Shown here: in pieces, positions 3,301 to 40,142 of the stretch
Position numbering within the stretch: position 1 is the stretch's first letter
Layout: each line of letters opens with the position of its first letter
Source: a virus
Taxonomy: Duplodnaviria; Heunggongvirae; Uroviricota; Caudoviricetes
IMG/VR virus record: IMGVR_UViG_3300032030_000021
Span: 29,122 to 93,121 of that record
DNA: 64,000 nt
Direction: 5' to 3' (one strand)
The notes under the pieces: model-generated
Told to the model about the DNA's origin: nothing
What the model saw: only the letters and a program-made list of their open reading frames with translations
Databases searched by the model: none
Translations under genes and position numbers: made by a program

Positions 3301-4016
3301 GCACTTCTCTCACTACAGCTCCGGAACTCCCTGCAACATCATTGGCATCAAATTGTTATTCTTCTATGTTTTATGGGTGCACTTCTCTTACTGCAGCTCC
3401 GGCACTTGATGCAACCACACTAGCTAGTAATTGCTATCAATATATGTTCCTAAATTGCACATCTATTACGGTTGCTCCGGATCTTCCGGCAACAACGATA
3501 CGAGCATCGTGTTATGCCGGCATGTTTCGTGGCTGCACTTCTCTCATCGCAGCTCCGGAACTCCCGGCAACATCATTATTGTCAAGTTGTTATTCTTCTA
3601 TGTTTCATGAGTGTACGGCACTTGTTACTCCTCCAGAACTTCCCGCAACAACATTGGGTACATATTGTTATCAAAATATGTTTCGTAATTGCACTTCTCT
3701 CACCACAGCTCCAGAACTCCCAGCAACAACATTGGCGTCAAATTGTTATTCTTCCATGTTTTATGGGTGTACTTCTCTTACCACAGCTCCAGAACTTCCG
3801 GCAACTACACTGGTAACAAATTGTTATCAATATATGTTCCAGATATGCAGTTCATTAAATTATATCAAAGTTGGTGCCACATCCTGGAATACAACATATG
3901 CATCAAATTGGGTCAGTGGTGTATCCGCTTCCGGAACATTTGAGAAGCCCTCGTCAACTAACATAGCCACCGGTGTTAATGGCATACCATCCGGTTGGAC
4001 AGTTGTAAATGTATAA
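330..4016 (+). CDS. giant modular tail fibre / receptor-binding protein with BspA-type leucine-rich repeats
   Basis: 1228 aa. The N-terminal ~130-aa domain occurs twice in tandem. Two blocks (8 and 14 copies) of a 23-aa repeat C-Y-x-x-M-F-x-G-C-T-S-L-T-x-A-P-E-L-P-A-T-x-L (LRR_5/BspA-like) are each followed by a conserved C-terminal module (ISSW..NW..GV..TG..KPS...P.GW). The architecture looks like a fusion of two fibre genes. Confidence 0.6.
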   Translation: MSIIQSISDHRAAVIALPAASLYNALTVNSVYKLYKTVTAGVIECYIKITSKTPITLPGEQTPYDCSITGPAVYIEKTNTDVITKAEIGIRSISNLISNKTHLASDNWLIYTSSISEYNSMVDLVIDNMSSGAITGPSGKIESISDHRAAVESMPAPALYNALAVNSIYMLQKQSGNRTIKCYIKIANKTAITYPNTSDIYDCTITGPAVYIETDSSGNITLGEIGKREITNLISSKTHLASDNWTIYTSNTSEYNDMVDDVINYITYTPPDPNHFSLTSKHAGSSVYIKSRTSTDTPPDFEYSYDTVNWIPWNYTTTGPAGNIYTHTFSTLTLNFNERIYIRSHSDTLNIGASTNTSTQFYMTGRFNASGNIQSLINYSTSVPPFCYYQLFTNCSSLITTPTLPATILSQYCYQAMFTGCSSLITAPALPATILNIYCYSYMFSGCTSLTTAPALPATNIAEGCYGNMFQGCTSLTTAPALPATKIARSCYQYMFSNCRNLAIPPALPATSVSGNYCYCGMFQNCISLKTTPKLPLTSLGGYDYQYMFRGCTSLTEAPELPATNLTNGNYQYMFADCSNLTKCADMQKVTNVSSNACQYMYLNCSKLNNAITPYISSWTTSAFTNWLSGVASTGTLYKPSSLTNIPTNNVSGCPTGWSTSNSTGKVRLSAQNTPGFSYTYNGTTGTVASGEVIELQITDPKTITINAPSTLYLIKIDNNYVGVSSAVINYIDAVGHTITCPDLTSQNPLCFTAQQAGSTISMTHTGTNQTSTKPSIYILRNGSVSTWDFLSITLSNVGDNVYMFGFNSTMGGSGTNVSVGANSSRFVMTGSIAASGNTQSLVGFSSTASRGCFANLFYDCTSLTTAPELPAMTLEYGCYEYMFRDCTSLTIAPELPATTLPSYCYQSMFYGCTALVTPPELPATTLGTYCYQYMFRNCTSLIAAPELPATVLKNYCYQSMFYGCTALVAPPELPATTLAPNCYSSMFYGCTSLTTAPELPATSLASNCYSSMFYGCTSLTAAPALDATTLASNCYQYMFLNCTSITVAPDLPATTIRASCYAGMFRGCTSLIAAPELPATSLLSSCYSSMFHECTALVTPPELPATTLGTYCYQNMFRNCTSLTTAPELPATTLASNCYSSMFYGCTSLTTAPELPATTLVTNCYQYMFQICSSLNYIKVGATSWNTTYASNWVSGVSASGTFEKPSSTNIATGVNGIPSGWTVVNV
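2890..3840 (+). repeat. 14 tandem 69-bp units encoding the 23-aa LRR
   Basis: Near-identical units are visible in the DNA (e.g. ttgcacttctctcactacagctccggaactcccggcaaca recurring). A smaller array lies at ~1490..2060 and another in the paralog at ~4780..5110. Confidence 0.85.
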
Positions 4017-5932: not shown

Positions 5933-6385
5933 ATGAAATCTATAACAGAATCTATAATAGGGAGAAAAAACTCGTATAAAGGAAAAGACCTTAAACAACT
6001 AATTCTTAGTGAAATAGATATGAAGGACTTTCCGTATATTCGAGAAACGTCTAAGAACTATAAAAACAATCTTCTAGACGATAAATTCTTATATGCACTG
6101 GATAATATCCAAGGATGCGATAATGATTTCAAGATTGCTGCAGTTTATGATATGATGGGATATATAGAGGCTCAGTATGATATTAATGCCGGCGATGATG
6201 GTGTTGCGGATCAAGGTGCATATAATATGATAGAGATGATATCCGATCCCAATCGGAATCAAAATGACTTTTACGCCTTCATACATACTCCTAGCCGTGG
6301 TGGAAATCCCTCCTGGTCCGGACTATCTCAGCAATATGCGGAAATAGCCGAACTTTTCTTAGATCCGGATTTTGAATTAATATAA
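5933..6385 (+). CDS. N-terminal MK..ESIIGRKG-tagged family protein (putative capsid-targeted internal protein)
   Basis: Starts MKSITESIIGRKNSY. Lies directly upstream of the prohead protease gene. Confidence 0.6.
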   Translation: MKSITESIIGRKNSYKGKDLKQLILSEIDMKDFPYIRETSKNYKNNLLDDKFLYALDNIQGCDNDFKIAAVYDMMGYIEAQYDINAGDDGVADQGAYNMIEMISDPNRNQNDFYAFIHTPSRGGNPSWSGLSQQYAEIAELFLDPDFELI

Positions 6386-6390
6386 CTCAT

Positions 6391-6852
6391 ATGAAAACCA
6401 TAACCGAATCCATATTAGACCGCATTAACGGCAATCGTTTCGGAGGAAACAAGACACTTCGTGCCTCTCAACAGGAAGCGGATCTTTTCCTAGTGCAAAC
6501 CGACTTCAAAAACAGCTTTAAAGACTGGCAGCTTTCCAAGTGTACATGTGTAAGCAAGTTATCCGAAATCAAGTATCGGGAATGCTGGAAAGAATCTCTA
6601 ATAGTGCCCAATGCCGAACTTCCGTTAAGCCAAGAAGAAGTAGAGAAAGTGCTTAAAGAAGACTTTAAAGGAACAGTCTTGGTAGAAAAAGTCTATCCGG
6701 AAGATATATATCTGAAACTGCCGTACATAAAAATGATTCCCCTAAAGTCCGGAGAGTCAATTCCTAATGCCCAGGCTATGTGGTGGTTCGGGGATTGGTT
6801 CACCAAGACCGAAGTTATGAAAGCTATAAAACAATATATAAATAGTTTATAA
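6391..6852 (+). CDS. tagged-family protein, degenerate motif variant
   Basis: Starts MKTITESILDRINGN and retains I-T-E at residues 4-6. Confidence 0.5.
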   Translation: MKTITESILDRINGNRFGGNKTLRASQQEADLFLVQTDFKNSFKDWQLSKCTCVSKLSEIKYRECWKESLIVPNAELPLSQEEVEKVLKEDFKGTVLVEKVYPEDIYLKLPYIKMIPLKSGESIPNAQAMWWFGDWFTKTEVMKAIKQYINSL

Positions 6853-6874
6853 CTAATAACTTAAAAACTTATGC

Positions 6875-6900
6875 AAGCTCTCTCTTGGGAGCTTTTTTAT
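6875..6900 (+). terminator. rho-independent terminator
   Basis: AGCTCTCtcttGGGAGCT hairpin plus T-run. Confidence 0.6.
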
Positions 6901-6954
6901 TTCTTATAAGTTCTGATTTGAATTTTTAAAATTATTATATATTATTTTTTTCAG

Positions 6955-6970
6955 ATATCTATAAATAAAT
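6955..6970 (+). promoter_or_regulatory. late-promoter-like box TATAAATAAAT upstream of protease/scaffold gene
   Basis: Contains the T4 late consensus TATAAATA. The shared ATAAATAAAT also occurs at 8416..8426 (sheath); weaker AAATAAAT boxes precede the MCP (22132..22150) and queE (~60063..60071) genes. Confidence 0.4.
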
Positions 6971-6980
6971 ATTTTAAGAC

Positions 6981-8396
6981 ATGTCAAAAGTGCTGATATA
7001 TGAAAAGCTGAGCAATGTCACGGGTTTCAAGAAAGTAAGATCCGATGACGGCTTTATCAGATTATCGGGTGTCTTTGCCCAGAGTGGTGTTAAGAATCGT
7101 AATAATCGCACATACACCACGGAAAACTATTCTAAAATGATCGAAGGATTGAAAAAGAGAATCGTCGAAGAAGGTTGTCCTGGCGAATTAGAACACCCAA
7201 CAACTATGAACATTGATTACAACAACGTATCTCACATGGTAGAGTCCGTGGAGATTGATGAGAATGGTACGGTTACCGGCACTATCAAGCTTTTGGATAC
7301 CCCTAAGGGAAAGATTGCTCAAGCTCTAGTAGAAGGCGGATTGCCGCTATTTATTTCATCTCGCGCCACCGGCAATGTGGATAAAAACGGTATTGTAACC
7401 CTGGAGGAATTAAAAACTTATGATCTAGTAGGTACTCCGGGATTTGCTCAAGCCAGACTCCATTGTAATGAGGGTATGGTTGCCGAAAGCATCGATGATG
7501 ATATGTTCATCGTATATGAAAATGAAAATGACAATCAAAATAAACAAGAAAATACAATGGAAATCGAAGCCTTACATGAGGAATTACAAAACACCAGAGC
7601 GCTTCTTGAAGATATGACCAGCAAATATAAAGAATTGTTGGAATCTGTTAGAGAGTTGCGTGAAAAATCGTTTAATAACGATGTTGATGAACTTAGAAAC
7701 CTTGGCAATCAGAACAAGGGTCTGACCGAATCTCGGGTTCGTCAGATGATCGAGGAATCCGTAAATGGTGCGGTTACCGGTCTTATTGAAAAACTATCCG
7801 ATGGTATCGAGAAATGGATCGTGGAAGAGTACAGTCCCGAAATCGAGAAATGGATCGTGGAAGAGTACAGCCCCGAGATCGAGAAATGGATCGTGGAAGA
7901 GTATAGTCCCGAAATCGAGAAATGGATCGTGGAAGAATATTCACCGGAAGTTGAGAAATGGATCGTGGAAGAATATTCACCGGAAGTTGAAAACTGGCTT
8001 AATGAAGAATTCGCTCCCGAGACTCTTGGCGGCATGATTAAAGAAAGCAAACAAAGCAAGCTGGAAAATATTGATTCTATATTGGAGATGTTAGATGCCG
8101 ATAAAACCAAAAAGCCGGTTTTCGAAAGTTCTACTCCCAATGAACCGTATTTTATTGCCGCTATGCCGGAACATATCCGTCCGCTCTGGGAAAGCGCTTC
8201 CGATGAAATGAAATCTTATATTACGGAAAAAGCCCATATGTATACTTTGAATACCGATGAGAAAATCAAATACTTCTGGGAGAACAAAGTAGATTTCAAA
8301 AAAGAACTCCAGCCATCAAAGAATATCAATGAAGGATTGGATACCATTACGGACAATTTCGAGAAGAATCTGAGAATGGCTCTTCGTAAACGCTAA
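6981..8396 (+). CDS. prohead core protease (T4 gp21-like) fused to a scaffold-like coiled-coil/repeat domain
   Basis: The N-terminal ~170 aa aligns by eye with T4 gp21 ([52 protein letters not shown]). The C-terminal half is coiled-coil with five [12 protein letters not shown] repeats, each carrying I-x-E sites. An ATAAATAAAT box sits upstream. Confidence 0.7.
7806..7990 (+). repeat. 5 tandem copies of a 36-bp unit encoding ([13 protein letters not shown])
   Basis: Direct tandem repeats are visible in the DNA, with synonymous and near-synonymous variation between units. Confidence 0.85.
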
Positions 8397-8415
8397 TCTT
8401 AAATTTTGAAAAGAA

Positions 8416-8426
8416 TATAAATAAAT
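8416..8426 (+). promoter_or_regulatory. late-promoter-like box TATAAATAAAT upstream of tail sheath gene
   Basis: Same box as upstream of the protease gene, 11 nt before the ATG. Confidence 0.4.
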
Positions 8427-8436
8427 ATTAAAAATC

Positions 8437-11427
8437 ATGAGTTTACCCGCATATTTAGCCAATATAAAATCTTCGGGCATTTATCGTTTCGTATGGGATA
8501 AGTCCGAGATTCCTAACACCACTACCGAAATTTTAAGACTGGTGGTCGGCTATTCCGAGCGCGGGCCTTTCAATACTCCGGTGTACATCAAATCCCAAAC
8601 GGAGTTCAGAAGTGTTTTTGGAGATATCTCTAAAAAACTTGAACGCCAGGGATGCTGGTTTCATCGGATGGCATTGCAAGCATTGCGCAAGGGTCCCATC
8701 CTTTGTCTGAATCTTAAAAACTTCAAAAGCGAGAATGTTCGTGCTATTAGTTTTAAAACTCCCCAAGAATCTATGGTTGATAAGATTGACCTGGCGGTGA
8801 CGGATATTTATAATACTAATAGATTCTGGACACTGGAGCCTGAGCTTCTAGAAGAGATATCCGGCACTATTACTCCGGAATCCGGCGATTCTACGGTTGT
8901 AGATCTTTCTAAGAACTACATCACCATCACGGCCACCGATTCTAAAGAAGTTTCCAACACCGTGTTCATCCGTGGATACGAACCCAAGGGCTATGATGTT
9001 ACCTTCAAAGAATGGTATGCTTCCACTCTTAACGGTACCGAGATGCCTAGCTATCTGGAAGGATATGAGAATAAGAAACTTAAAAACTTCTGGGCCGAAA
9101 TTTATGTGTTCCGCGGAGAATTTACGACAGATATCGCCACTTCGGACGCATTATGCAAATACTTTGACGTGGTGGATGGCAAAGTCATGCTGAAACCGTT
9201 TATCACCAATGCATTCGGAGAGAAAAAGGATACATTGGATCTTTTGGCTTCCAATGACGCATCTAATTTCATCCGTAAATATCAAGGTATATTGCTTCCG
9301 GAATTTCAATCCGCAACAGGTTCTACCATCTCTTTGGATATTCTGTTTAACAACGATAACCAGCTTCACAAGATGATGATGCGTTTGAATCAGAATCTGC
9401 TTTATGAAGGAGATATCACGATTGACGATATCGATACCATGGGATGGAACCTCGAAAGTGGCGCTATTGAATATAATGACGGTATTGACTATAGCAACAT
9501 GACGAACAATATGCCGGAAGTTCTGTCTATTACTAAAAACGTCCCGGTAATCTACCAAGCCATGTATAATCAGTACAATGGAGAATGGATATATGGCGTA
9601 GTTCCTACCAAATCATTTGATCAGAATAATCCGATTGACATTGACGTTGATAAGATGAACGCCGATTTTTACACCTATAATCTCCATACACTCGGTAGTG
9701 ATACTCCCGCATCAGTGTCCACAACGGACCCATATTCTATCGAAATAACCGACGATATAATCAATGCCGGATTTACGAATAATGAAATCCAGTTCACTAA
9801 TGATTACATTACTACTCCCGGCAAGGTTAAGTATCTGGGTACCTCTACTCACAATGGCAGAAACTTTATGGATGTCAAAATCATCAGCAATGGTGATGGT
9901 CCTAGAGAATGGGTTGGTCGGATTGTACATGTTATGATCGCCGATCCTAATCTTCCGGATGCCGAAAATAGTGGATGCGTAAGCAACGATAATATTGAGA
10001 ATTTAATATTATTCGACGCTGCATATAATACAATTCCGGTTAGCGAAGGCAGCTCCGACAATATGACGGTTAACCTATTAGAAACCGGAATTATCAGTGA
10101 TGCCGGAATTATTGACACTTTCAATAAGATCGGTATCAAAGAAGGAGATGTTTTCTGGATCGACAACGCTAGAGATGCCGAGGGCATGCCATCATTCTTA
10201 TGCACCGTTACCAAGATGAAATATGAAGCGGCCAGCAGCGATACTCCCGCAAAACTCACTATCACATTTGACAAGGATCTTTTCGGTGTCACTTCTGTTG
10301 ATATGCTCGTCAAATGCGCCGGATCCGTTACCGCCACTTCTATTAATCTGAAACCGACTTATGTTACCGGTTATACTTATGCCGGTTCCAAGGTTAAAGA
10401 TATCGCTGGTTATGATCCTAATGCCGATCCTCAGATTGCTAAAAACAACTGGGTGAACTATCAGCTTGGAGTTTTGGATATGAAGGGAATCCGTACGGGC
10501 TTGACTAACCGCACGGATGTCGATTATCGTTATCTGGTAGACACATTCGAAGCATTTGCCGTTCCTGGAGAATGTCATTCTAAACTAGCCTTGATCTGCA
10601 AACTGAAATTCAATGTTTTGGGTCTTATCAACTTCCCGAACATGAAATCCTTCAGCAAGTGCAAATCTATGTCATTCCGCGACAGTAATGGCTTTGATAG
10701 CAAGTATATTGCTTTGGGCAACAACCCGATGATGGCATCCGATGGACAGTTCATGCTAGCTTCCGAAGACAATGGTGCAAGCTTCGTATCTTATAATACT
10801 CCGGTAATCCTTAAAGATCCGGAAACCGGTGTGAAAACTGCAGTACCTTCCGCTGCTTTGGTATCTAACGATTTCTTGGAGAAATTTGATAAGTTCTTGC
10901 CTTATTCTATTGTTGCCGGACCTAAGAGAGGCCGTATTACGGATCCTAATCTGATCGGACCGGAATTCAGCTTCGGCCGTGAGGATCTGGATAACTTGGA
11001 ACCTATGGGTGTTAACTGTATGGTTTATGTTCCGGGTAAGGGTACTTACATCAACTCTAACCAGACAGCTAAACAGAATCCGGTTTCCGCTCTGTCTAAG
11101 ATCCATATTCGTGAGCTCTGTACTTTCTTGCAGGATGAGATTGAAAAGATGATGGAATACTATCACTGGGATTTCAATACTCCTAATCTAAGACAGACTC
11201 TGAAGGATAAAGCTGATACAATCTGTGATACTTGCTACCGCAACCAAGGTATCTACGATTACATCAATGTATGCGATGAAAGCAATAATAATCAAGAAGT
11301 TATAGATGCGGAAATGATTGTGCTCAGCACAAGCATTGAACCGAGTAGAGGTGCAGGCAAGATGGTGCAAGAATTGACTCTGTATCGTACAGGTGGTTTG
11401 AGAGCTGCTATCCGTGATGCGCAATAA
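8437..11427 (+). CDS. contractile tail sheath protein (unusually large, 996 aa)
   Basis: The N-terminus GIYRF...ILRLVVGYSERGPFNTPVYIKSQTEFRSVFGD fits the sheath signature (pGvY...G.a.rGP.n.P.lvts..eF...FG). The C-terminus GVNCMVYVPGKGTYINS fits the sheath GVN.i..pG.G motif. A TATAAATAAAT box sits upstream. Confidence 0.7.
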   Translation: MSLPAYLANIKSSGIYRFVWDKSEIPNTTTEILRLVVGYSERGPFNTPVYIKSQTEFRSVFGDISKKLERQGCWFHRMALQALRKGPILCLNLKNFKSENVRAISFKTPQESMVDKIDLAVTDIYNTNRFWTLEPELLEEISGTITPESGDSTVVDLSKNYITITATDSKEVSNTVFIRGYEPKGYDVTFKEWYASTLNGTEMPSYLEGYENKKLKNFWAEIYVFRGEFTTDIATSDALCKYFDVVDGKVMLKPFITNAFGEKKDTLDLLASNDASNFIRKYQGILLPEFQSATGSTISLDILFNNDNQLHKMMMRLNQNLLYEGDITIDDIDTMGWNLESGAIEYNDGIDYSNMTNNMPEVLSITKNVPVIYQAMYNQYNGEWIYGVVPTKSFDQNNPIDIDVDKMNADFYTYNLHTLGSDTPASVSTTDPYSIEITDDIINAGFTNNEIQFTNDYITTPGKVKYLGTSTHNGRNFMDVKIISNGDGPREWVGRIVHVMIADPNLPDAENSGCVSNDNIENLILFDAAYNTIPVSEGSSDNMTVNLLETGIISDAGIIDTFNKIGIKEGDVFWIDNARDAEGMPSFLCTVTKMKYEAASSDTPAKLTITFDKDLFGVTSVDMLVKCAGSVTATSINLKPTYVTGYTYAGSKVKDIAGYDPNADPQIAKNNWVNYQLGVLDMKGIRTGLTNRTDVDYRYLVDTFEAFAVPGECHSKLALICKLKFNVLGLINFPNMKSFSKCKSMSFRDSNGFDSKYIALGNNPMMASDGQFMLASEDNGASFVSYNTPVILKDPETGVKTAVPSAALVSNDFLEKFDKFLPYSIVAGPKRGRITDPNLIGPEFSFGREDLDNLEPMGVNCMVYVPGKGTYINSNQTAKQNPVSALSKIHIRELCTFLQDEIEKMMEYYHWDFNTPNLRQTLKDKADTICDTCYRNQGIYDYINVCDESNNNQEVIDAEMIVLSTSIEPSRGAGKMVQELTLYRTGGLRAAIRDAQ

Positions 11428-18562: not shown

Positions 18563-18976
18563 ATGAGGACATTACAGGAATCTATAATAGGGCGGCGAGG
18601 CTCTCAACATGGGCGTTCTAAATCAAAAGAGCTTAAGTGTTTTGAGGATTTGGAATATGGAGATATTGTAATTATCCAAAATCGCGCGCTTTCGGGCAGT
18701 AAATATTATATATATCTTCCTAAAGGAATATGTTACCTTCTATTCAATAGAACCCGGCTAAGAGAAGATGCATTTGTAACATGTAATCTGAATAACAATA
18801 TGGTACCATTATCTTATTGGAAGGCGGATGGGTTTAATCATTTTGATTTTCCGTTTTTCACAAGAAAAAGTGCGGAAATTGTAAGCTGCGAGGGACATGT
18901 TCAAGAATATTATTCTATAAAAACCGAAGAAGATGTTAAACGTATTTTTAATAAATACAATCTACCAATATCATGA
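18563..18976 (+). CDS. tagged-family protein (subfamily with DLEYGDIVIIQN core and IFNKYNLP C-terminus)
   Basis: Starts MRTLQESIIGRRGSQ. Overlaps the next gene by ATGA. Confidence 0.65.
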   Translation: MRTLQESIIGRRGSQHGRSKSKELKCFEDLEYGDIVIIQNRALSGSKYYIYLPKGICYLLFNRTRLREDAFVTCNLNNNMVPLSYWKADGFNHFDFPFFTRKSAEIVSCEGHVQEYYSIKTEEDVKRIFNKYNLPIS

Positions 18977-19377
18977 AAACACTGCAAGAATCTATAATAG
19001 GAAGAAAAGGATCTTCTATCCGTTCTAAATCAAAAGCGCTTAGGTGTTTTGGAGATTTGGAATATGGAGATATTGTAATTATCCAAAATTACTCACGTCG
19101 GGATAGCAAATATTATATATATCTTCCTAAAGAGATATGCTCGCCTCTATTTAATTTCTTAAGAGAAGATGCATTCGTAACATGTAATCTAAACGACAAA
19201 TTGGTACCATTATCTTATTGGAAGGCGGATGGCTTTAATTATTATGGTTTTCCGCTTTTCGCAGCAGGTGCCGCCGAAATTGTGAGTTATGAGGGGCATG
19301 TTCGAGAATACAATTCTATAAAAACCCAGGTAGATGTTAAACGCATTTTTGACAAATACAATCTACCAATATCATGA
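18973..19377 (+). CDS. tagged-family protein (same subfamily)
   Basis: Starts MKTLQESIIGRKGSS. C-terminus KRIFDKYNLPIS. Confidence 0.65.
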   Translation: MKTLQESIIGRKGSSIRSKSKALRCFGDLEYGDIVIIQNYSRRDSKYYIYLPKEICSPLFNFLREDAFVTCNLNDKLVPLSYWKADGFNYYGFPLFAAGAAEIVSYEGHVREYNSIKTQVDVKRIFDKYNLPIS

Positions 19378-19742
19378 GAACGTTGCAAGAATCCATAATA
19401 GGGCGAAAAGGCACACCATATCGAAAACCAATACCGAAAAGTTTTGATGATCTAGAATATGGGGATTTTATTGAGATAAGTGGAATTTTTGGCGGTACAT
19501 TTTTATATGTTCCGCATTCTGTGTCTGATATATATTTTAATAATAATGTGGATGCATTTATAAGACCTTCTGATTACTGGACGGCAGAAACCTTTAAATT
19601 TTCATTTCCATATCATAATACCGACAAAACTCATAAAATAGAAAAAATAATTGGGTCTGTTAGTGAAAATGAATATAGTAATTTGAAAACCAAAAAAGAC
19701 GTATCTCATCTTTTTAATAAATATAATATACCGAGCAAATGA
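19374..19742 (+). CDS. tagged-family protein (same subfamily)
   Basis: Starts MRTLQESIIGRKGTP. C-terminus SHLFNKYNIPSK. Confidence 0.65.
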   Translation: MRTLQESIIGRKGTPYRKPIPKSFDDLEYGDFIEISGIFGGTFLYVPHSVSDIYFNNNVDAFIRPSDYWTAETFKFSFPYHNTDKTHKIEKIIGSVSENEYSNLKTKKDVSHLFNKYNIPSK

Positions 19743-20392
19743 AAACACTTTATGAATCGATAATAGGAAGGAAAGGATCATATCTAGGTGGTGTCCCAGT
19801 AGTATTCTGGAATAAATATGACCCGACCGACATAAGTATCGTGATAGACATGCCCCGAAACGTCATAGGGGTTATAGAACAGTCAGATGAGGGTGATTGT
19901 ATTTTAGAAATAAAAAATCTTAATAGCATCCATATATTATATATGTCCGGCGAACCGGGTTGTACTGCTATCTTAGATACAAAATGCCGATTATTGAATG
20001 AATTTCAAAACAAGTTTGAATCGGAATATAATAGAGTTCTCTCCGGTGTAACCGTTCAAGATTTTATTAAAAGTTATTATAAATATGAATTACATGTGGG
20101 GGATGCATATATTCCCATAGGTAGTATATTGGTACGGGAAATAACAAAATCCATTCCCAGGACACACAAAATACTAGATATATTTGATCCGGATTATGCC
20201 TGGAATGCTTGGACAGAATTTATATGGAATATGCCGGATGCTACTTCTACTACCGGCCCATATTCATTCGGATATGCTATAGTGGATTTAGGGCATAAGA
20301 AAATAATTGAAAGTCCCCGTGGATATAATATTAATATAAGGATGGAAACTTTCAAAGAATTTGGACGGCATAATGAAAGATATGGGAATTAA
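19739..20392 (+). CDS. tagged-family protein, larger member
   Basis: Starts MKTLYESIIGRKGSY. 217 aa. Confidence 0.6.
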   Translation: MKTLYESIIGRKGSYLGGVPVVFWNKYDPTDISIVIDMPRNVIGVIEQSDEGDCILEIKNLNSIHILYMSGEPGCTAILDTKCRLLNEFQNKFESEYNRVLSGVTVQDFIKSYYKYELHVGDAYIPIGSILVREITKSIPRTHKILDIFDPDYAWNAWTEFIWNMPDATSTTGPYSFGYAIVDLGHKKIIESPRGYNINIRMETFKEFGRHNERYGN

Positions 20393-20401
20393 AAGAGACA
20401 C

Positions 20402-20758
20402 ATGAAGCATATCAGCGAATCTATAATAGGAAGAAAAGGAGGTACTTATAATTCATCTAAAATACCCGGAGATTGGTATCCGGGACAAGATCTGGAATAT
20501 GGGGATATTATAGTATCGAATTGGAAGAATATGTATTATATATGCCTTCCGGTTAAACAATGTATCGGATGGTGGGGTAGATATGACGGGCCAAGAGCTC
20601 AGACGGCCCTGATAAGATATAGTCCTTCTGGAGCTCGTTATACTAGTAACCTCGCAAGTGATTATCAATTTGTAAGATATATAAGAGAATATAAAAATAT
20701 AAAGACACCAGAAGATCTTAAACGCATTTTTGATAAATATAACATACCACACGAATGA
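20402..20758 (+). CDS. tagged-family protein (same subfamily)
   Basis: Starts MKHISESIIGRKGGT. C-terminus KRIFDKYNIPHE. Confidence 0.65.
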   Translation: MKHISESIIGRKGGTYNSSKIPGDWYPGQDLEYGDIIVSNWKNMYYICLPVKQCIGWWGRYDGPRAQTALIRYSPSGARYTSNLASDYQFVRYIREYKNIKTPEDLKRIFDKYNIPHE

Positions 20759-21330
20759 GAACACTTAGCGAATCTATAATAGGACGAAAGGGGAGTGTAG
20801 GATACCAATATGCTACACTAGGCCACCGAGACGAACTTATCTTGAGCGTCAATGCTATAGAACCTATTGGTAGTAAACCTACTAATTCCAATCCCCTACC
20901 TAAAGAAATTGTTTTTATATCCTGGGACGAAATCGGTATATATCCGGTAGTCACCGGATGTAGTACGGAAAACGAACTGAAACGGAAGATAATAAGCGTG
21001 TATGATGCACTGAAATCCACTAGCATGGAAGATATATGCAATCTGATGTGCATAGAATGGAAAGTTAAGTCCAATTGGTTCAAGTTTCCACTTTGGTGTG
21101 TGGTAGAATATTTCCGGGATGAGTGGGAGGATATGATGAATATAGATGTAACTGATCCACTAAGCAAATGGGCGTCTGATAGCGAATTGTATGATAAAAT
21201 TATTGCTTGGATAAAGGATACCCCATATCAATTTACTCCAGAAACCGAAATGTTTTGGTCTATAATAGATACTAATACCGGAAAGATAATAGCACGGAGC
21301 AGAACCGGCAAAATAATAATTGATAAATGA
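20755..21330 (+). CDS. tagged-family protein
   Basis: Starts MRTLSESIIGRKGSV. Confidence 0.6.
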   Translation: MRTLSESIIGRKGSVGYQYATLGHRDELILSVNAIEPIGSKPTNSNPLPKEIVFISWDEIGIYPVVTGCSTENELKRKIISVYDALKSTSMEDICNLMCIEWKVKSNWFKFPLWCVVEYFRDEWEDMMNIDVTDPLSKWASDSELYDKIIAWIKDTPYQFTPETEMFWSIIDTNTGKIIARSRTGKIIIDK

Positions 21331-21635
21331 GAACACTCAGCGAATCTATAATAGGACGGAAAGGAACTCGACCACAAACCAATATTATCAAGGATTGTCG
21401 CGATATGATTTCTAGAATAGACCATTCTCCATGGAAAGAAGCTATGGTGATGGCAACGAATTATTATGATGTCTTAATACAAAATAGATACCAATATCCC
21501 GAGGAAGTCCGGCAAATTATAGATGATTCTATAAACGAATGGTCCGGTAAGGTTTTATCTAAGATATCTAGCACCGACATTATGATACAGGCTATCAGGA
21601 GCATTTCCAATCTAGCTAAAAAACAAAGATCATGA
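21327..21635 (+). CDS. tagged-family protein
   Basis: Starts MRTLSESIIGRKGTR. Confidence 0.6.
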   Translation: MRTLSESIIGRKGTRPQTNIIKDCRDMISRIDHSPWKEAMVMATNYYDVLIQNRYQYPEEVRQIIDDSINEWSGKVLSKISSTDIMIQAIRSISNLAKKQRS

Positions 21636-22042
21636 AATCTATAACCGAATCTATAATAGGAAGAAGAGGAGTTTCCGGAAAACTACACAAATTCGACGAT
21701 TTAAAATACGGGGATTTTGTGGTTATTGATATGCCTGCCGAACAAAAAATGTTCGATTGCCTGTATGTACCGGAATATATTGCTATGAAAGTAATTTCTT
21801 ATCCTGGACCTACGGATGATTTTGGTCGATTTATATGTGTTGATCACAACGGTAAGGATATATCTTCTTTCCGGGCCGATAAGTTTGTAGATGACTTTCC
21901 GGATTGCCCCGAAGATGATGAATTTTTTTATAGTAAAATAGTAAATAAAATCGGCCATACGGAAGAATATGTTTCTTTAAAGGACAGAAAAGACGTGATA
22001 AATCTTTTTAAGAAATATAATTTAATAGGATTCCATCGCTAA
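21632..22042 (+). CDS. tagged-family protein (same subfamily)
   Basis: Starts MKSITESIIGRRGVS. C-terminus INLFKKYNL. Confidence 0.6.
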   Translation: MKSITESIIGRRGVSGKLHKFDDLKYGDFVVIDMPAEQKMFDCLYVPEYIAMKVISYPGPTDDFGRFICVDHNGKDISSFRADKFVDDFPDCPEDDEFFYSKIVNKIGHTEEYVSLKDRKDVINLFKKYNLIGFHR

Positions 22043-22158: not shown

Positions 22159-24048
22159 ATGATTCTTAATGAAAACGAACAGAGATATCGCAATCTGATT
22201 TCCGAAGAATTGCATGTCACTGATGAAAGAAAACTGAACTGGATGGCTCAAATGGCCAATGTTCATGCCATCAAAGAAGGCTTGCAGCCCAATAATGTTA
22301 GTGCGGATCATGGCGGCATTTATGCTACTCCTCTGAACACATTAGGTATTGGCAATCCTTTCATGCCTCAGGGTCTTGGAATGAACAATCCTAATCTTGG
22401 TGATGGTATTGGCAACACCGGTGCCGATTTCCACAATCCTGCTTATGTTAATGGTTCCGGTGATGTTCCTATGTCTACTCTTTCTATGGCATTGGAAGTT
22501 GCAGCCGTTACCGTTGGTTTCGACTTGGTCGCTACCGTCGTGGCTACCGGCCCTATGGCTATGTTGACCTTCGTTGATTATCCTTATGCTGGTGGTAAAC
22601 TCGGTCACATTGGCGAGACCTGGCAAGATGGCATTGGTCCTGACAACGAGAACAAACCCATTTACATCATGTTGAAGGGTGACATGGAAACCTCTATGAA
22701 GTTCCGCGACAATGAAAACGTAGAACCCGGCCGTACTACCGTGACGATCACCGGTGACACCGGCAAGTTCATTGGTATCTATATGGGCAACTCCCGTATC
22801 GACGGTTCCGCAATCTTCCAAGTGAAGAGTGTGAAGGAAGACGATAAAGATATTTCTATCGCTCAAATGTTCCAGAAGGAAGGCGTGTTCACAACCGATG
22901 CTAAAGATAAAGATGGTAATGATATCGTATTCGGTAAAGCCGGTACGCCGGGTTCCGGTACCGAAGGTGAAGATGACTATGTTGCTCCTACCGAAGGTAC
23001 TAATGTGAGACTGATCCCGGAACTGGTGAAAGGTATCACCGATCACATCCAGTCATTCTCTAACTTCTTCGGAAACAGAGTTGAGAATGAAGATGGTTCT
23101 TATAGCGTTGTTCCTTCCGACGATCCTATGACCAGAGCTCAAAACGAAACCGGTACTGGTAACACTATTGGTGTTCGTATGTTCTCTAAGATGATCCAAA
23201 TGGGTAACTATGAAGTGACCGGTGCTGTTACTCGTCAGCAGCTTCAAGATATGCCTCTGTATGGCATCGATGTTATTGGTGGTGTATTGGAAGCTTGTCA
23301 GGCCGAGATTTCCCAGGCTCTGAACAACCGTATCATCGACCGCGTTATGAAACTTGGTGTTGAGAACTACAAAGTACAGAAAGCCGTTCAAGGCTGCGAC
23401 TTCAACCTCTACCTCGGCAACGTAGTTAAGGAAGATGGTTCCGCTAACCTGTACAAACCTCTTAACGAGTTCAAGGCATACAACAAGTTCCGCGATTTGA
23501 ATGGTAAAACCGTTCCTTCCGTGAACATTCCGAACGCTACTAAGAACTCCAGCGCCGAGAACGTTACTACTCACCAGAGACGTATTGCTTCTCGTTGTAT
23601 GGCCGCTTCTAACTTGATCTCCAGCGTTACCCGTAGAGGTCGTGCTCATTGGATCCTGACCAATGCTCAGATCCTGACCGCTCTGCAGGATTGCTCCGGT
23701 TATGTGGTAGCTCCTATGGTTAACAATCTGGTTCAAGGTGGTGAAGAGAGCTTGTACTACGCAGGTTCTATTGCCGGTATGCAGATCTATGTTGATCCTT
23801 ACATGCTGTGGGAAGACACTCGTATCTGCGTTGGCCGTAGAGCTACCGTTACTAACAACCAAGTTCAAGGTTCCGGTGTGGTCTTCATGCCGTACATCCT
23901 CGCAGACACTGTGCAAATCGTTGCAGAAGGCACCATGGCTCCTAAGATGCTGGTGAATAGTCGTTATGCAATTGTAGACGCAGGTTTCTATCCCGAGCAG
24001 AATTACTATACCTTCATGGTGGAAACTGATTCTGATTTCATTATCTAA
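22159..24048 (+). CDS. major capsid protein, T4 gp23-like
   Basis: SMALEVAAVTVGFDLVATVVATGPMAMLTFVDYPYAG resembles gp23 VMGMVRRAIPNLIAFDICGVQPMNSPTGQVFALRAVYG. C-terminal HWILTNAQILTALQDCSGY...YYAGSIAGMQIYVDPYM resembles gp23 NFIIASRNVVNVLASVDTGISY...VFAGVLGGKYRVYIDQYA. Upstream region has AAATAAAT boxes. Confidence 0.7.
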   Translation: MILNENEQRYRNLISEELHVTDERKLNWMAQMANVHAIKEGLQPNNVSADHGGIYATPLNTLGIGNPFMPQGLGMNNPNLGDGIGNTGADFHNPAYVNGSGDVPMSTLSMALEVAAVTVGFDLVATVVATGPMAMLTFVDYPYAGGKLGHIGETWQDGIGPDNENKPIYIMLKGDMETSMKFRDNENVEPGRTTVTITGDTGKFIGIYMGNSRIDGSAIFQVKSVKEDDKDISIAQMFQKEGVFTTDAKDKDGNDIVFGKAGTPGSGTEGEDDYVAPTEGTNVRLIPELVKGITDHIQSFSNFFGNRVENEDGSYSVVPSDDPMTRAQNETGTGNTIGVRMFSKMIQMGNYEVTGAVTRQQLQDMPLYGIDVIGGVLEACQAEISQALNNRIIDRVMKLGVENYKVQKAVQGCDFNLYLGNVVKEDGSANLYKPLNEFKAYNKFRDLNGKTVPSVNIPNATKNSSAENVTTHQRRIASRCMAASNLISSVTRRGRAHWILTNAQILTALQDCSGYVVAPMVNNLVQGGEESLYYAGSIAGMQIYVDPYMLWEDTRICVGRRATVTNNQVQGSGVVFMPYILADTVQIVAEGTMAPKMLVNSRYAIVDAGFYPEQNYYTFMVETDSDFII

Positions 24049-24174: not shown

Positions 24175-25737
24175 ATGAAAGAATTAGATTTTGATTATCC
24201 GGAATTTGAAAAATTAAATCCATCTAATTGTAGAGAAGCATCTATTAGTATTCATTATCCCGAATTTAAGGAATATTTATACAACAAATATCCAGACATA
24301 CCGTTTCCTGAAAAAATATATTTATTTTATCATAACAAGGGCAATCCCGGGATTTGTAAGATGTGTGGAAATAAGACGAAATTTATTGGATTTAAGAAAG
24401 GATATAGGGAGTTTTGTTCTTACGAATGCATGAATTCTTGCGAAGAAATACAAGAACGCAAAAAAATTACATGTCGAAAAAATTATGGCACAGACAACCC
24501 TATGGGTAGTCTTGAGTTAAAAGAAAAAATAAAACGGACATGTTTAGAAAAATATGGAGTAGAGAATTGCTTTCAGTCACCGGAGCTCATGAAAAAAGCT
24601 CGAAAAACATGCAAAAGAAAATACGGGACGGAATATGCTACTCAGTCCCTGTCTGTAAAAGATAAAATATTAGAATCTAGAAGACAGAATATATTAAATA
24701 ATGATGACAGTATATTAGATATTATTCACACAGACAATCATTCCGATCTTTATATTATGAAGTGTCCGGATTCCGGATGCAATCTGTGTTCTAAAAAAAG
24801 ATATGAAATAAAATCTAATATATTATATGATCGTTGCAGATTAGGAGTAGACCCGTGCACTATAAGAACTCCAGTGGGGTCCCATATCAAAAATACGGGT
24901 CTTGAAAAATTTGTTCAAAATATATTAGATGAGTATCATATACATTATATAGCTAATGATAGAAGAATTTTGGATGGGAAAGAATTAGATTTATATATCC
25001 CGGATAGAAAAATAGCTATAGAATGCAATGGTGTATATTGGCATTCTAAATTAGATATGTTTTATCATTATAATAAGTGGCAATATTGTAAAGAAAAAGG
25101 AATTCAACTACTGTCGGTTTGGGAAGATTGGGTGACTAATAAACCGGATGTAATTAAAAATATTATATTGTCTAAGTTGAATATATATGATAATTTTATT
25201 GGTGCGCGAGAATGTGCGGTGGAGCCCGTATCCGCAAAAGAGGCGCGAGTGTTTTTAGATGAAAATCATATTCAAGGTTTTTGTAGTAGCACTATAAGAT
25301 ATGGATTATATTATAAAAATGAATTGGTGGCTTTAATGTGCTTCAAAAAAACTAATAATCCATCTTCTAAAAGGAATATTGGGTGGGAGTTATTAAGGTT
25401 TTGTTCGAAAATAGGATGGCACATAGCCGGGGGTGCTGGCAAGTTATTGAAATACTTCCGGGAAGATCATCCTGAACCAATTATATCATTTGCGTCTCAT
25501 GATATCTCTAATGGAAAATTATATGAAACACTCGGATTTCGGCATACTAGTGAAATTAAAACCTGCTATTGGTATGTCCATAACCAAACTCATAAAAGAT
25601 TTCATCGATCCTCATTTACTAAAAAAGAATTGGTAAGAAAAGGATATGATTCCAAGCTTACCGAAGAACAAATTATGATAAACTCAGATTATTTTAAAAT
25701 ATATGATTCCGGACAAACAAAATACATTTTGGAGTGA
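24175..25737 (+). CDS. free-standing homing-endonuclease-like protein (Vsr/DUF559-like nuclease domain plus zinc ribbon and tandem K-x-T-C-x-x-K-Y-G-x-E-N modules)
   Basis: Contains CKMCGNKTKF, three ~33-aa TC..KYG.EN repeats, and ELDLYIPDRKIAIECNGVYWHS (Vsr FVHGCFWHGH-like) followed by WEDW. Confidence 0.55.
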   Translation: MKELDFDYPEFEKLNPSNCREASISIHYPEFKEYLYNKYPDIPFPEKIYLFYHNKGNPGICKMCGNKTKFIGFKKGYREFCSYECMNSCEEIQERKKITCRKNYGTDNPMGSLELKEKIKRTCLEKYGVENCFQSPELMKKARKTCKRKYGTEYATQSLSVKDKILESRRQNILNNDDSILDIIHTDNHSDLYIMKCPDSGCNLCSKKRYEIKSNILYDRCRLGVDPCTIRTPVGSHIKNTGLEKFVQNILDEYHIHYIANDRRILDGKELDLYIPDRKIAIECNGVYWHSKLDMFYHYNKWQYCKEKGIQLLSVWEDWVTNKPDVIKNIILSKLNIYDNFIGARECAVEPVSAKEARVFLDENHIQGFCSSTIRYGLYYKNELVALMCFKKTNNPSSKRNIGWELLRFCSKIGWHIAGGAGKLLKYFREDHPEPIISFASHDISNGKLYETLGFRHTSEIKTCYWYVHNQTHKRFHRSSFTKKELVRKGYDSKLTEEQIMINSDYFKIYDSGQTKYILE

Positions 25738-27353
25738 TGGAGATACCAAATATTAGCAACCTTACATCCAAAGAACTTCAGGGTAAGTGGTTTGAAAAGA
25801 ATTATCTGGAGTTTTATCAGCATCTTGTAAATACATATCCAAATCTCCAAAAATTCACTGAAAAATTGTATTGGTATCTCCACGATATCAAAGAAACACC
25901 GAAATGTACTTGCGGAAAACCTCTGAAGTTCCGGAGTCTCAAGGTCGGATATTCCGAGTTCTGTTCGGCCAAATGTTCTAATTCTAATCCGGAAAAAATC
26001 AAAAAGACTAAAAATACATGTCAAGAACGATATAGATCCTCTTCTCCGGCCGGCAATAAAGACATCCAAGATAAAATGAGGAAAACATGTCTGGAAAAGT
26101 ATGGTGTAGAAAATTATCTAGAAATTTCCCATCGAACGGGAAGTCTTTCGGAAGAATCTAAGCAAAAAATGAAAGAAACCTGTATAGAAAGATACGGTGT
26201 GGAAAATGTGATGAAGCTTCCGGAATATCAAGTTATTGTCAATGGAAATAAAGATTATAAAAAACTATCGGAAAAAGCTCGAGAGGCTCGAAAAAACCGG
26301 GTTATGAATCAAAATCCGGATATAATATCTATAAAAAATGGTTTATGGACTTGCCGGTGTCCCCATCCCAATTGTACCAAATGCGATAAAAAATCATATG
26401 AAATAACGGCTCAAATGTATCATGATCGCCGAAGAGATCATACGGAGCCTTGTACTATACTTTTAGCACCTTCACCGAATAACAATAAAAATACTTCTTT
26501 AGAAATTTTTGTACGGTGTTTATTAGAAGAGCATAATATAGAATATATTGCAAATGATCGATCTATATTAGGAGGCAAAGAACTAGATATATACATTCCG
26601 GATCGGAAAATAGCCATAGAATGCAATGGTGTTTTTTCACATAGCTCTAGATATAAACCTAGAAATTATCATTATGAAAAATATAAAGCTTGTTCGGAGC
26701 GGAACATCCGTCTTATAAGTATCTGGGAGGACTGGGTTCGGAATAAGCCGGAAATTGTCCGGAGTCTGATTTTAAGCAAGCTGAACATATATGAGAACCG
26801 TATAATGGCTCGTAAATGTGAGGTGAAAGAGATAAATAGTAAAATAACAGGTAAATTTTTAGAAGAAAATCATATTCAAGGAAAAACTTCTTCAAATATA
26901 CATTTGGGCCTATATTATAAAAACGAATTGGTGGCGGTGATGCTGTTTGGAAAAAAACGAATGTGCTCCGGGAATAATAAAACAGCTGGGTGGGATTTAA
27001 GCAGATTTTGTACTAAAAGAAATATTTGTGTGATTGGGGGTGCGGGGAAGTTATTAAGTTATTTTATAAAACGGTGGTCTCCGGATATGATATATTCGTT
27101 TGCATCATGTGATATTTCTAATGGAAATCTTTATAAGTCTTTAGGGTTTGTAAATATAGGCCATTCCTCTTCATATTGGTATATAAACGAGCGCACCCTT
27201 CAAAGATATCATAGAAGTTCCTTTACTAAAAAATCCTTGATAAAACGAAACTGGGCTGATGGAACGGAAACTGAAACTGATGTAATGAATAATCATGGAT
27301 TCTTGCAAATCTATGATTCCGGTACGGAAAAGTGGATACTGAAGATTATCTAA
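25734..27353 (+). CDS. paralog of the upstream Vsr-like endonuclease
   Basis: Same architecture (ELDIYIPDRKIAIECNGVFSHS, ISIWEDWVRNKPE). ATGA overlap with the upstream paralog. Confidence 0.55.
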   Translation: MMEIPNISNLTSKELQGKWFEKNYLEFYQHLVNTYPNLQKFTEKLYWYLHDIKETPKCTCGKPLKFRSLKVGYSEFCSAKCSNSNPEKIKKTKNTCQERYRSSSPAGNKDIQDKMRKTCLEKYGVENYLEISHRTGSLSEESKQKMKETCIERYGVENVMKLPEYQVIVNGNKDYKKLSEKAREARKNRVMNQNPDIISIKNGLWTCRCPHPNCTKCDKKSYEITAQMYHDRRRDHTEPCTILLAPSPNNNKNTSLEIFVRCLLEEHNIEYIANDRSILGGKELDIYIPDRKIAIECNGVFSHSSRYKPRNYHYEKYKACSERNIRLISIWEDWVRNKPEIVRSLILSKLNIYENRIMARKCEVKEINSKITGKFLEENHIQGKTSSNIHLGLYYKNELVAVMLFGKKRMCSGNNKTAGWDLSRFCTKRNICVIGGAGKLLSYFIKRWSPDMIYSFASCDISNGNLYKSLGFVNIGHSSSYWYINERTLQRYHRSSFTKKSLIKRNWADGTETETDVMNNHGFLQIYDSGTEKWILKII

Positions 27354-37695: not shown

Positions 37696-38520
37696 ATGAA
37701 GACAATAGTAGAATCTATAATAGGAAGAAGAGGGTCTAATAAAAAATTATATATAGTAAGTCCGAAAGGTTCGGATAACTATTTATATTGGAATAGTAAG
37801 TTTACTTATAATGGAGTTGCGGATAGTCGAGGGTACTTTTATTTTGTTTTGACAAAAGATGAACTCCAAAAATTTCTTCCGCAGGAGCCGGATACTAGCA
37901 TTTATTTAGTCGATGACGATACCGTAGATTATAAGAAATTGGAACAAGATGTGGAAAAAACAAAAGATCTTTTAAATAATCCTCTTATATACTTAAAAAA
38001 AGTAGACGTAATGTCTATCAGCGAATCTATAATAGGACGAAAAGGTGTGCCGAAAGAAAACGGGACCGTATGGGGAATGCTTTCCCCGCTTTTCGACCCG
38101 CATGTAGAAACCACACACGATATCAATCATTTGGTATATATATTTACGGCCCCGATTATGAAGGTTAAAAAAACATATACCAATATATTTAATATCATGT
38201 GTGATGCAATAACACTATTCAGACATTCCGCTTATTTATTTCCCACGGCAGCATGTGCCGAAAAAGATTACTTATATGTATTAAATGAGGTAAGTGTGAA
38301 TCTTAATGTAATTAGAGATGGGCGGATTGCCGGTTCTTGGACCGAATCTATCCAAAGACTGGAGGAACGGAAAGAAGTATCTTCTAAATTGAAAAAGATA
38401 AGCAGGAAACTCATCGATTTTGATCTCTCGGGAATAAATGAAATCGCATTCCGATACTATTTCGATAATAAGAAACAACCGATGACATTAGAAATGATTA
38501 ATATAGATATTGCTATATAA
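37696..38520 (+). CDS. tagged-family protein, in-frame tandem fusion of two tagged modules
   Basis: Starts MKTIVESIIGRRGSN. A second complete tag MSISESIIGRKGVPK starts in frame at nt 38011 with no stop between them. Confidence 0.55.
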   Translation: MKTIVESIIGRRGSNKKLYIVSPKGSDNYLYWNSKFTYNGVADSRGYFYFVLTKDELQKFLPQEPDTSIYLVDDDTVDYKKLEQDVEKTKDLLNNPLIYLKKVDVMSISESIIGRKGVPKENGTVWGMLSPLFDPHVETTHDINHLVYIFTAPIMKVKKTYTNIFNIMCDAITLFRHSAYLFPTAACAEKDYLYVLNEVSVNLNVIRDGRIAGSWTESIQRLEERKEVSSKLKKISRKLIDFDLSGINEIAFRYYFDNKKQPMTLEMINIDIAI

Positions 38521-38536
38521 CTTAAAAAGGATCGAT

Positions 38537-38920: not shown

Positions 38921-38924
38921 AAAC

Positions 38925-39326: not shown

Positions 39327-39330
39327 AAAA

Positions 39331-40127: not shown

Positions 40128-40142
40128 AATAAACATTGAAAT

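Follow-up and report, generated by a model that had tools for sequence, protein, structure and literature searches.

Can a tailed phage carry its prohead protease and its head scaffold in one protein? In bacteriophage T4 the protease gp21 (212 amino acids, aa) and the scaffold gp22 (269 aa) come from separate adjacent genes, whereas a single open reading frame (ORF) stands at positions 6981..8396 of the DNA considered here, a stretch of 64,000 nucleotides from a virus of the Caudoviricetes (IMG/VR record IMGVR_UViG_3300032030_000021, positions 29,122 to 93,121), which we call the window. A preliminary description, made from the letters of this DNA, had read the ORF as a gp21-like protease fused to a scaffold-like domain with tandem repeats. 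The order of parts is a predicted protease, a disordered linker, a coiled-coil-like helix, six acidic tryptophan repeats, a helical spacer, a helical domain and a basic tail. Domain identities, conservation patterns and genomic contexts are reported as observed. We consider the gene to be, probably, a jumbo-myovirus protease-scaffold polyprotein, in which the assembly role, internal initiation and cleavage sites are what we infer.

One open reading frame with an N-terminal gp21-type protease

The frame runs uninterrupted for 471 codons from its ATG, with neither an internal stop nor a frameshift; the frameshift between two genes that the preliminary description had named as counting against its reading was looked for and is absent. 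Three independent public assemblies encode the identical 471-aa protein beside the same neighbour genes, and the fusion and the repeat count are therefore not artefacts of the window. ORFs on the opposite strand over the repeat (e.g. 7742..8140) are by-products of it. The parts of the gene are as follows.

6981..8396, + strand: whole ORF, 471 aa, 54.3 kDa, pI 4.7; probable protease-scaffold polyprotein
6981..7535, + strand: predicted Peptidase S77 (T4 gp21-type) prohead serine protease domain, residues 1-185
7194..7196, + strand: His72 codon CAC; predicted catalytic His, equivalent of T4 gp21 His85
7356..7358, + strand: Ser126 codon TCA; predicted catalytic Ser, equivalent of T4 gp21 Ser140
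7422..7424, + strand: Asp148 codon GAT; candidate third residue of the triad
7464..7472, + strand: C162-N163-E164, just past the protease fold; candidate self-release site
7521..7556, + strand: low-complexity Asn/Asp/Glu/Lys/Gln linker, DNA very A-rich; AlphaFold2 (AF2) predicted local distance difference test (pLDDT) below 50 for residues 184-193
7557..7559, + strand: Met193, an ATG in frame where the linker meets the helix; candidate internal start of a 279-aa (33.0 kDa) scaffold-only product
7557..7805, + strand: long helical, probably coiled-coil, region, residues 193-275; acidic, heptad-like sequence
7806..8021, + strand: six 36-bp/12-aa W-repeats, four identical, one near-identical and one degenerate; net charge -19
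8022..8108, + strand: helical spacer, residues 348-376; AF2 helix 346-373
8109..8324, + strand: C-terminal helical domain (MP-x6-W ... K ... FW), residues 377-448
8325..8333, + strand: I449-N450-E451, the [ILV]-x-E with the highest conservation in the scaffold part; candidate site for release of the tail
8334..8393, + strand: basic amphipathic C-terminal tail, 20 residues, pI 10; candidate capsid-protein-binding tail

Sequence and predicted fold identify residues 1-185 as a prohead protease of the T4 gp21 type (Peptidase S77). The profile search proposed in the preliminary description was positive: Pfam Peptidase_S77 (PF03420) matches residues 26-146 with E=3.7e-11 and 43.3 bits, above the gathering threshold of 27. 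PHROG 207, 'head maturation protease', matches residues 6-218 (8.8e-45), and Pfam S80, the phiKZ gp175 family, is also above its cut-off (E=2e-6). T4 gp21 (5JBL) was the sole PDB match by sequence (E=0.006). Its chains came first again in a Foldseek search with the AF2 model (E=1.2e-8, probability 1.0, template modelling score on the target 0.59-0.61), followed by weak matches to herpesvirus proteases. The model, built on a 29-sequence alignment, has a mean pLDDT of 67.5, with about 70-83 in the beta-rich protease part.

The blocks VKNRNNRTY (37-45), GELEHP (68-73) and SSRATGNV (126-133) align with VVNRNKRLY, GELNHP and SSRGLGSL of T4 gp21, and the two catalytic residues replaced by Ala in the 5JBL crystal construct align with His72 and Ser126. 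The gp21 triad is His/Ser/Asp (PMC5694885). His72, Ser126 and Asp148 are invariant in both of our alignments, A1 and A2 (29 family members; gp21 of T4 and of cyanophage P-RSM4, PAU gp151, PTm1 and pT24). Given this alignment, the fold match and the invariant triad, the earlier by-eye alignment with gp21 was correct, and the claim of an N-terminal gp21-like serine protease is borne out.

An acidic helical region with the character of a scaffold

The region that follows, residues 193-471, is acidic (33.0 kDa, pI 4.6) and predicted to be helical, with AF2 helices at 192-244, 250-343 (through the repeats, pLDDT ~60-69) and 346-373 and a small helical domain at ~390-440 (pLDDT 84-88). M395, P396, F432 and W433 are invariant or nearly so. 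The MP-x6-W...K...FW domain is common to all three clades described below, namely the window family, the Tenacibaculum phages and a megaphage clade; it has no fold match in the PDB, and its BFVD matches were only homologous phage proteins. A separate domain model places a helix at 83-94 in the C-terminal tail, which by analogy may bind the capsid protein, as the scaffold tails of P22 and herpesviruses do.

We rejected the idea that residues 193-471 are a homologue of T4 gp22, as BLASTP, Pfam/PHROG scans and hhalign were all negative. With gp22 homology not detectable, 'scaffold' stays an inference, one to which position in relatives, physico-chemical character and analogy would point. The protease-scaffold fusion of the preliminary description thus holds as one ORF with a long helical acidic region, and no gp22 similarity accompanies it.

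The fusion is widespread, and its position in relatives points to head assembly

The preliminary description had called a fused architecture unusual. It does differ from T4, but it is the norm in a very large clade: a word-indexed search found at least 2,459 protein clusters at E<=1e-5 among 8,000 candidates scored, and Tenacibaculum phages and megaphages have it as well. The best 120 clusters are 435-581 aa long, nearly all cover 93-100% of the query, and the longest of their contigs has 293 kb. T4, a cyanophage, PA5oct, Vibrio and Yersinia jumbo phages and PAU encode protease and scaffold in two genes; separate genes are one state and the fused gene is another, very widespread one.

No near-identical DNA was found in cultured phages. 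The closest cultured relatives, at 34-36% identity, are the Tenacibaculum phages PTm1/PTm5 (564 aa, 36% over residues 3-352) and pT24 (527 aa), whose proteins (PTm1 ORF-300 and pT24 BPT24_140) have the same order of protease, helical region, Trp repeats and MP...W...FW domain. They are labelled 'prohead core scaffolding protein and protease' and 'prohead core scaffold', a generic gp21 annotation. Their repeats are degenerate and longer (~16-17 aa, e.g. SEGIEKWILESILPKQAEITESWIKYDFTKEL) than the 12-aa units here, and they contain an inserted acidic Lys/Asp/Glu stretch that the window protein does not have. In both phages the gene follows the portal, and the next large gene comes immediately after it; no second scaffold candidate lies in this interval. 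That large gene is annotated as major capsid protein (MCP) in PTm1 and is an unannotated 590-aa protein in pT24. The MCP gene starts 77-146 nt downstream in about half of the recovered IMG/VR family loci.

A sister clade (L051-L081, L098) has proteins of 700-850 aa with the same order of parts, in which ~8-12 tandem 14-residue YSEY[IL]AENLDKNI[AS] units replace the W-repeats and are followed by a long acidic stretch and then the same C-terminal domain. The fusion is present in megaphages of 630-735 kb. Megaphage LR745206.1 (634,780 bp) has a 707-aa fusion ORF (L098 547-2670) with the MCP gene directly downstream, its start again within 77-146 nt.

Sphingomonas phage PAU was considered as a split version of the gene (gp151 protease, gp152 'scaffolding') and rejected, gp152 having no similarity to region 193-471. 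The scaffolds of PA5oct, a Vibrio phage and a Yersinia phage were likewise rejected as counterparts, being unrelated.

The W-repeats are a conserved module

At 7806..7972 Tandem Repeats Finder detects 4.6 copies of a 36-bp period, with 90% matches and a score of 257. The preliminary description counted five repeats at 7806..7990; five near-identical units are indeed there, but the array ends some 30 bp later, at 8021, with a sixth, degenerate unit. Compared in pairs, units 1-5 show 30 synonymous codon differences and 4 non-synonymous ones, all four of the latter Ile/Val at position 1. Since the differences are mostly synonymous, selection is acting on the whole peptide while the DNA drifts.

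In 121 homologous proteins, units defined by Trp residues exactly 12 apart number 934 and give the consensus [VIL][QE][NK]W[IV][VT]E[EQH][YF][SA]PE. Trp is conserved in 100% of units, Tyr/Phe in 82%, Glu7 (the Glu of I-x-E) in 79% and Pro in 62%, with 3-11 units per protein (median 8). Judged by this conservation, the 12-aa unit is an old, family-wide module. It is also variable in number, as had been predicted for isolates: P0007 and P0008 differ by no substitution and a single 24-aa (2-unit) indel, the window protein differs from P0001 by 6 substitutions and one 12-residue (one-unit) indel, and relatives at 67% identity or more have 3-7 units. A literature search with the repeat peptide gave no match, nor did tblastn with the repeat-containing part, probably through low-complexity filtering.

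Each unit had been credited with two [LI]-x-E motifs, the expected cleavage signal of a gp21-type protease. I-V-E fits, but E-I-E does not, because its P3 is Glu instead of Leu or Ile. The further proposal that the repeats mainly multiply I-x-E sites is not supported, Trp, Tyr/Phe and Pro being conserved comparably to Glu. The retention of the Trp and the Tyr/Phe, of a helix-cap-like S-P-E motif and of a strict period argues that the array is not purely a multiplier of cleavage sites. The W-repeats are probably a copy-number-tolerant, amphipathic and strongly acidic interaction module that is cleavable only secondarily; its binding partners may be the shell, other repeats or cargo.

The most conserved stretch of gp22 has one element that looks like a W-unit: KEWLAEN in T4 (L082 12118-12927) and EQWMKEN in P-RSM4 (L087 3188-4234). 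These resemble both the W-unit core [QE][NK]W[IV]xE[EQ] and the EY[IL]AEN of the sister clade, and, as there is no profile-level similarity, they serve as a lead only. T4 gp22 thus has at most one W-motif-like element, compared with the six tandem units here.

A conserved methionine at the junction may start a scaffold-only product

If the extension is a scaffold, is it made only as part of the protease? A Met stands at the linker/helix junction in all 120 homologues inspected, although the distance from the GxPGF motif (linker plus the C-terminal strand of the protease) varies from 27 to 99 residues. It is present in 46 of 46 distinct IMG/VR genes, where the flanking positions are less than 60% conserved.

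Gene starts in the window are A-rich upstream and show no Shine-Dalgarno motif. A start-context position-weight matrix, derived from the 70 gene starts of the window itself, gives the ATG at 7557 a score of 5.33, third of 431 internal in-frame ATGs. The scores are 7.65 +/- 4.85 for true starts and -9.40 +/- 5.76 for all 431 internal ATGs; every other internal ATG of the protease-scaffold gene scores below -5. In the 46 genes, the 36 nt upstream of the junction ATG are 56% A, and the Lys/Glu/Gln/Asn/Asp codons among the 12 upstream codons end in G/C in 21.0% of cases, compared with 34.7% elsewhere in the same genes.

A nested 279-aa scaffold-only product from ATG 7557 is, to our reading of these sequences, the slightly favoured interpretation. 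The T4-late-promoter-like octamer TATAAATA was not found inside the gene upstream of 7557, and as no internal promoter motif was seen, we propose internal translation initiation on the same mRNA. The T4 record annotates internal initiation in gene 21.

In one relative (L095), a TGA stands in frame at 3338-3340, where relatives have a Cys codon. Before it lies a protease of 172 aa and after it a scaffold ORF of 296 aa, whose first residue is exactly the junction Met. This case is anecdotal and could be a natural split, recoding or a sequencing error.

Candidate cleavage sites and leader-bearing small proteins

The motif [LI]-x-E occurs 23 times in the whole protein, compared with 10.4 +/- 2.8 in composition-preserving shuffles. 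The scaffold part has 18 (8.1 +/- 2.3 expected), and still 12 when the repeats are left out (4.6 +/- 1.8). In a 121-sequence alignment, conserved [LIV]-x-E sites are at residues 6-8 (93%), 162-164 (79%), in each repeat (63-87%) and at 449-451 (96%). E164 is present in 119 of 121 homologues, the window protein having Cys at P3 of this site. The site at 449-451, 20 residues from the C-terminus, is followed by Gly/Asn/Ser in homologues, and E451 is kept in at least 90% of A1. By analogy, 162-164 would serve for self-release of the protease and 449-451 would be the maturation site that detaches a capsid-binding tail.

The N-terminus of the MCP has a conserved I-K-E or I-H-E near residues 36-42. 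In addition, 25 small ORFs (87-274 aa) with diverse bodies share a near-identical 13-residue leader, M-[KR]-[TSH]-[IL]-x-E-S-I-I-G-R-[KR]-[GNS], with [LI]-x-E at residues 4-6 and a net charge of +2. Their positions are as follows.

5933, 6391, 18563-22042 (8), 37696-42577 (8), 47771-49332 (3) and 61016-62450 (4, minus strand): leader ORFs (25)

Weaker versions of the leader are found close to the protease gene of relatives. Ten of the 25 leader-bearing proteins were compared with PHROG and matched no family, and the two encoded just upstream of the protease gene had no match either; a literature search with the leader peptide gave none. The leader resembles the capsid targeting sequence of T4 internal proteins, the role of which has been described (PMC5694885). 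The leader-bearing proteins may be protease-processed, capsid-loaded cargo. A T4-like cleavage specificity, after Glu in [LI]-x-E, would be consistent with the conserved sites, the MCP N-terminus and the 25 leaders.

A model for the polyprotein and its alternatives

We propose a model where the scaffold part co-assembles into the prohead core and thereby takes protease with it into the shell, in sub-stoichiometric amount. Most of the scaffold would be made separately, as 279 aa from ATG 7557, as in UL26/UL26.5 and lambda C/Nu3. Once the shell is complete, the protease would cut after Glu in [LIV]-x-E, freeing itself near E164 and removing the C-terminal tail at E451. The helical part would be chopped, one site per repeat included, and the MCP propeptide trimmed by the same protease, which probably would also remove the MK-x-[IL]-x-E leaders from the ~25 small proteins of the window.

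Several observations weigh against this model. AF2 confidence in the helical part is modest (pLDDT ~60-69). Similarity to gp22 failed to appear at every level: hmmscan gave no hit to the T4 gp22 family (PF25623) at E<=1, Pfam/PHROG scans of the C-terminal part gave no gp22 match, BLASTP against T4 gp22 reached only E=2.6, and hhalign gave a probability of 0.3% with a gp22 profile that is shallow, its retrieved homologues being mostly at least 70% identical to one another. In the window it is the sheath gene that follows, with the MCP gene 13.8 kb away, so the positional argument comes from relatives only, and as the window is part of a genome, a separate scaffold gene could sit elsewhere. The excess of [LI]-x-E could partly come from helical heptad composition, and the differences in repeat number are all read from short-read assemblies.

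The nested product has its own difficulties. The codon-ending comparison (paired Wilcoxon p=4.6e-6) treats 46 related genes as independent, an Asn/Lys-rich linker is A-rich partly for compositional reasons, and one subgroup (L017-L026) keeps the junction Met but is richer in G+C upstream of it. PTm1 and pT24 have I/V-T-E-S at the junction in place of Met, as at the T4 gp21 C-terminus, which suggests release by cleavage there. A search with residues 193-471 returned several 250-340-aa proteins beginning at the junction Met; taken as stand-alone scaffold genes these are artefacts (an N-gap in L094, a contig edge in L097, a garbled contig start in L096), which leaves L095.

The most serious competitor, though an unlikely one in our view, is that residues 193-471 merely target or anchor the protease in the core, the bulk scaffold being another protein or propeptides, as in the discussion of phiKZ/SPN3US-type phages. 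The failure to find gp22 homology, the distance from the MCP gene and the many leader-bearing small proteins encoded in the window all fit this idea, as does PAU, whose protease is 46% identical and yet is accompanied by a separate gene annotated 'scaffolding'. It sits poorly with the loci of relatives, since PTm1 and pT24 have nothing between this gene and the next large gene, and many IMG/VR loci and the megaphage have nothing before the MCP gene. A 33-kDa acidic helical region also far exceeds what other S77 proteases need (T4 gp21 has 212 aa), and the conserved junction Met with its start-like context argues for an abundant separate product. That the fusion or the array is an artefact of assembly or sequencing, through a missed frameshift or a mis-assembled repeat, is barely credible. 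Short-read assemblers can miscount 36-bp repeats and one relative (L035) has its ORF broken within the repeat region, but the exact 471-aa protein is found in three independent assemblies, thousands of homologues have the same single-ORF architecture, and synonymous differences make the units distinguishable.

Two further alternatives concern the purpose of the repeats. They might chiefly multiply [LI]-x-E so that scaffold peptides are small enough to exit the shell; each unit offers W-[IV]-x-E (kept, unit by unit, in 63-87% of homologues), the protein has more [LI]-x-E than expected, and T4 gp22 is degraded to short fragments (PMC5694885). We regard this as improbable because such sites need only P3 and P1, whereas the aromatics, the Pro and the 12-residue spacing are kept at 35-48% overall identity; moreover, the different aromatic repeat of the sister clade, which contains [IL]-A-E, is likewise conserved throughout, the scaffold part is already enriched outside the repeats, and E-I-E is no [LI]-x-E. 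An equally doubtful idea is that the acidic W-repeats dock basic MKTLQESIIGRKG-type leaders, the scaffold being a cargo-loading rack whose repeat number tunes the load. The opposite charges of the 25 leaders (+2) and the array (-19) and the similar leaders near the protease gene in relatives speak for it, but this support is purely circumstantial, the leader could serve another purpose, and the scanned leader proteins matched no PHROG family.

Comparison with known systems

T4 gp21 shares with the N-terminal domain its sequence, fold and catalytic residues. As in T4, [LIV]-x-E is found at analogous processing positions (the protease ends, the MCP propeptide and short N-terminal leaders), a candidate internal start has its counterpart in the annotated internal initiation of gene 21, and a helical acidic partner would, by analogy, be expected to be degraded.

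Herpesvirus UL26/UL26.5 offers a parallel in gene arrangement: its protease, which belongs to the same fold superfamily, stands at the N-terminus with a scaffold fused behind it, and its logic of an internal scaffold-only start, a release site and a tail-removal site is matched here by candidates for all three. The herpesvirus cleavage motif has Ala/Ser at P1, compared with Glu at the candidate sites here. Herpesviruses infect a different domain of life, their scaffold part has no sequence similarity to the window protein, and they have no tandem W-repeats. Their protease-scaffold fusion is accompanied by an embedded scaffold-only ORF that is expressed about 10x more (PMC11565193). This short form comes from a separate transcript, unlike here, where no internal promoter motif was seen.

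The same logic is found in smaller phages. In lambda, Nu3 is a nested in-frame scaffold gene that is the C-terminal part of the protease ORF C, and in P2 a single protein, gpO, is both protease and scaffold. Their proteases are unrelated to S77, their capsids are much smaller and they have no tandem repeats. gpO is mentioned in the literature as the P2 internal scaffold (PMC10945586).

phiKZ gp175 and SPN3US gp245 (MEROPS S80) are distant homologues of the window protease, without the W-repeat or the MP...FW domain. The site consensus of S80 giant-phage proteases is S/A/G-x-E. Proteases of the phiKZ/SPN3US type process the MCP and many internal or ejection proteins after Glu, at sites ending in SQE, and no gp22 counterpart has been confirmed in giant phages (PMC5694885).

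Surroundings in the window

The window is part of a jumbo myovirus-type genome and also encodes a DNA polymerase, a helicase and a baseplate wedge protein. Two features lie directly upstream of the protease gene.

6875..6894, + strand: terminator-like hairpin followed by a T-run, from a consensus scan only, between the upstream gene (end 6852) and the protease gene
6960..6967, + strand: TATAAATA, T4-late-promoter-like octamer 14 nt before the protease-scaffold ATG; putative function

The hairpin, known from that consensus scan only, suggests that the protease gene opens a new transcription unit. A second TATAAATA is at 8416..8423, 14 nt ahead of the sheath gene start; the octamer, which matches the T4 late-promoter consensus, occurs 26 times in the whole window compared with 13.2 +/- 3.9 expected. 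No Rfam family was found in 6000..9000.

The next gene downstream encodes the tail sheath (8437..11427, 996 aa; phrog_34521, 6e-93). It is unusually long, with only the C-terminal ~320 of 996 residues matching sheath families and no family match for the first ~670. The MCP gene is at 22159..24048 (phrog_28442, 1.6e-97; phrog_138 'major head protein', 1.2e-13). Directly 3' of it are two tandem paralogous homing-endonuclease genes, 24175-25737 and 25734-27353 (phrog_3339, 1e-113 and 3e-111); a Hef-like homing endonuclease follows the MCP gene in PTm1 and PA5oct as well. An ORF at 16937-18043 matches phrog_1211, a PurZ-like adenylosuccinate-synthetase family (8.7e-38), which hints at modified-base (2-aminoadenine) DNA metabolism.

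Implications

Protease-scaffold fusions and nested scaffold genes are already known from herpesviruses, lambda C/Nu3 and P2 gpO, and members of this family are in GenBank under the gp21 label. In the searchable literature, papers on jumbo phages included, we found no account of the S77-scaffold fusion architecture, the W/Y tandem repeat module or the conserved junction Met. Annotation pipelines call these 450-850-aa proteins just 'prohead protease', which masks the scaffold part.

Beyond this locus, it is tempting to speculate, and we do so tentatively, that a large clade of jumbo and mega-phages, from phages of ~200 kb with Flavobacteriia-type hosts up to megaphages of 735 kb, builds its heads in the manner of herpesviruses, with a minor read-through form that carries the protease, a bulk scaffold from an internal start, a clipped tail and plastic aromatic-acidic repeats. 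The 12-aa W-repeats and the 14-aa Y-repeats of the sister clade may be a multivalent rack on which the shell or leader-tagged cargo docks. For the scaffolding of giant-phage heads this family gives a concrete candidate in a mostly uncultured clade that includes the largest known phages. If the proposal is true, giant phages would have in the window protein their missing counterpart of gp22. The parallel with UL26/UL26.5, whose protease has the same fold, is relevant to the age of that gene arrangement, and the proposal, if true, would suggest that a protease-scaffold polyprotein is ancestral to the lineage of tailed phages and herpesviruses, rather than a herpesvirus invention.

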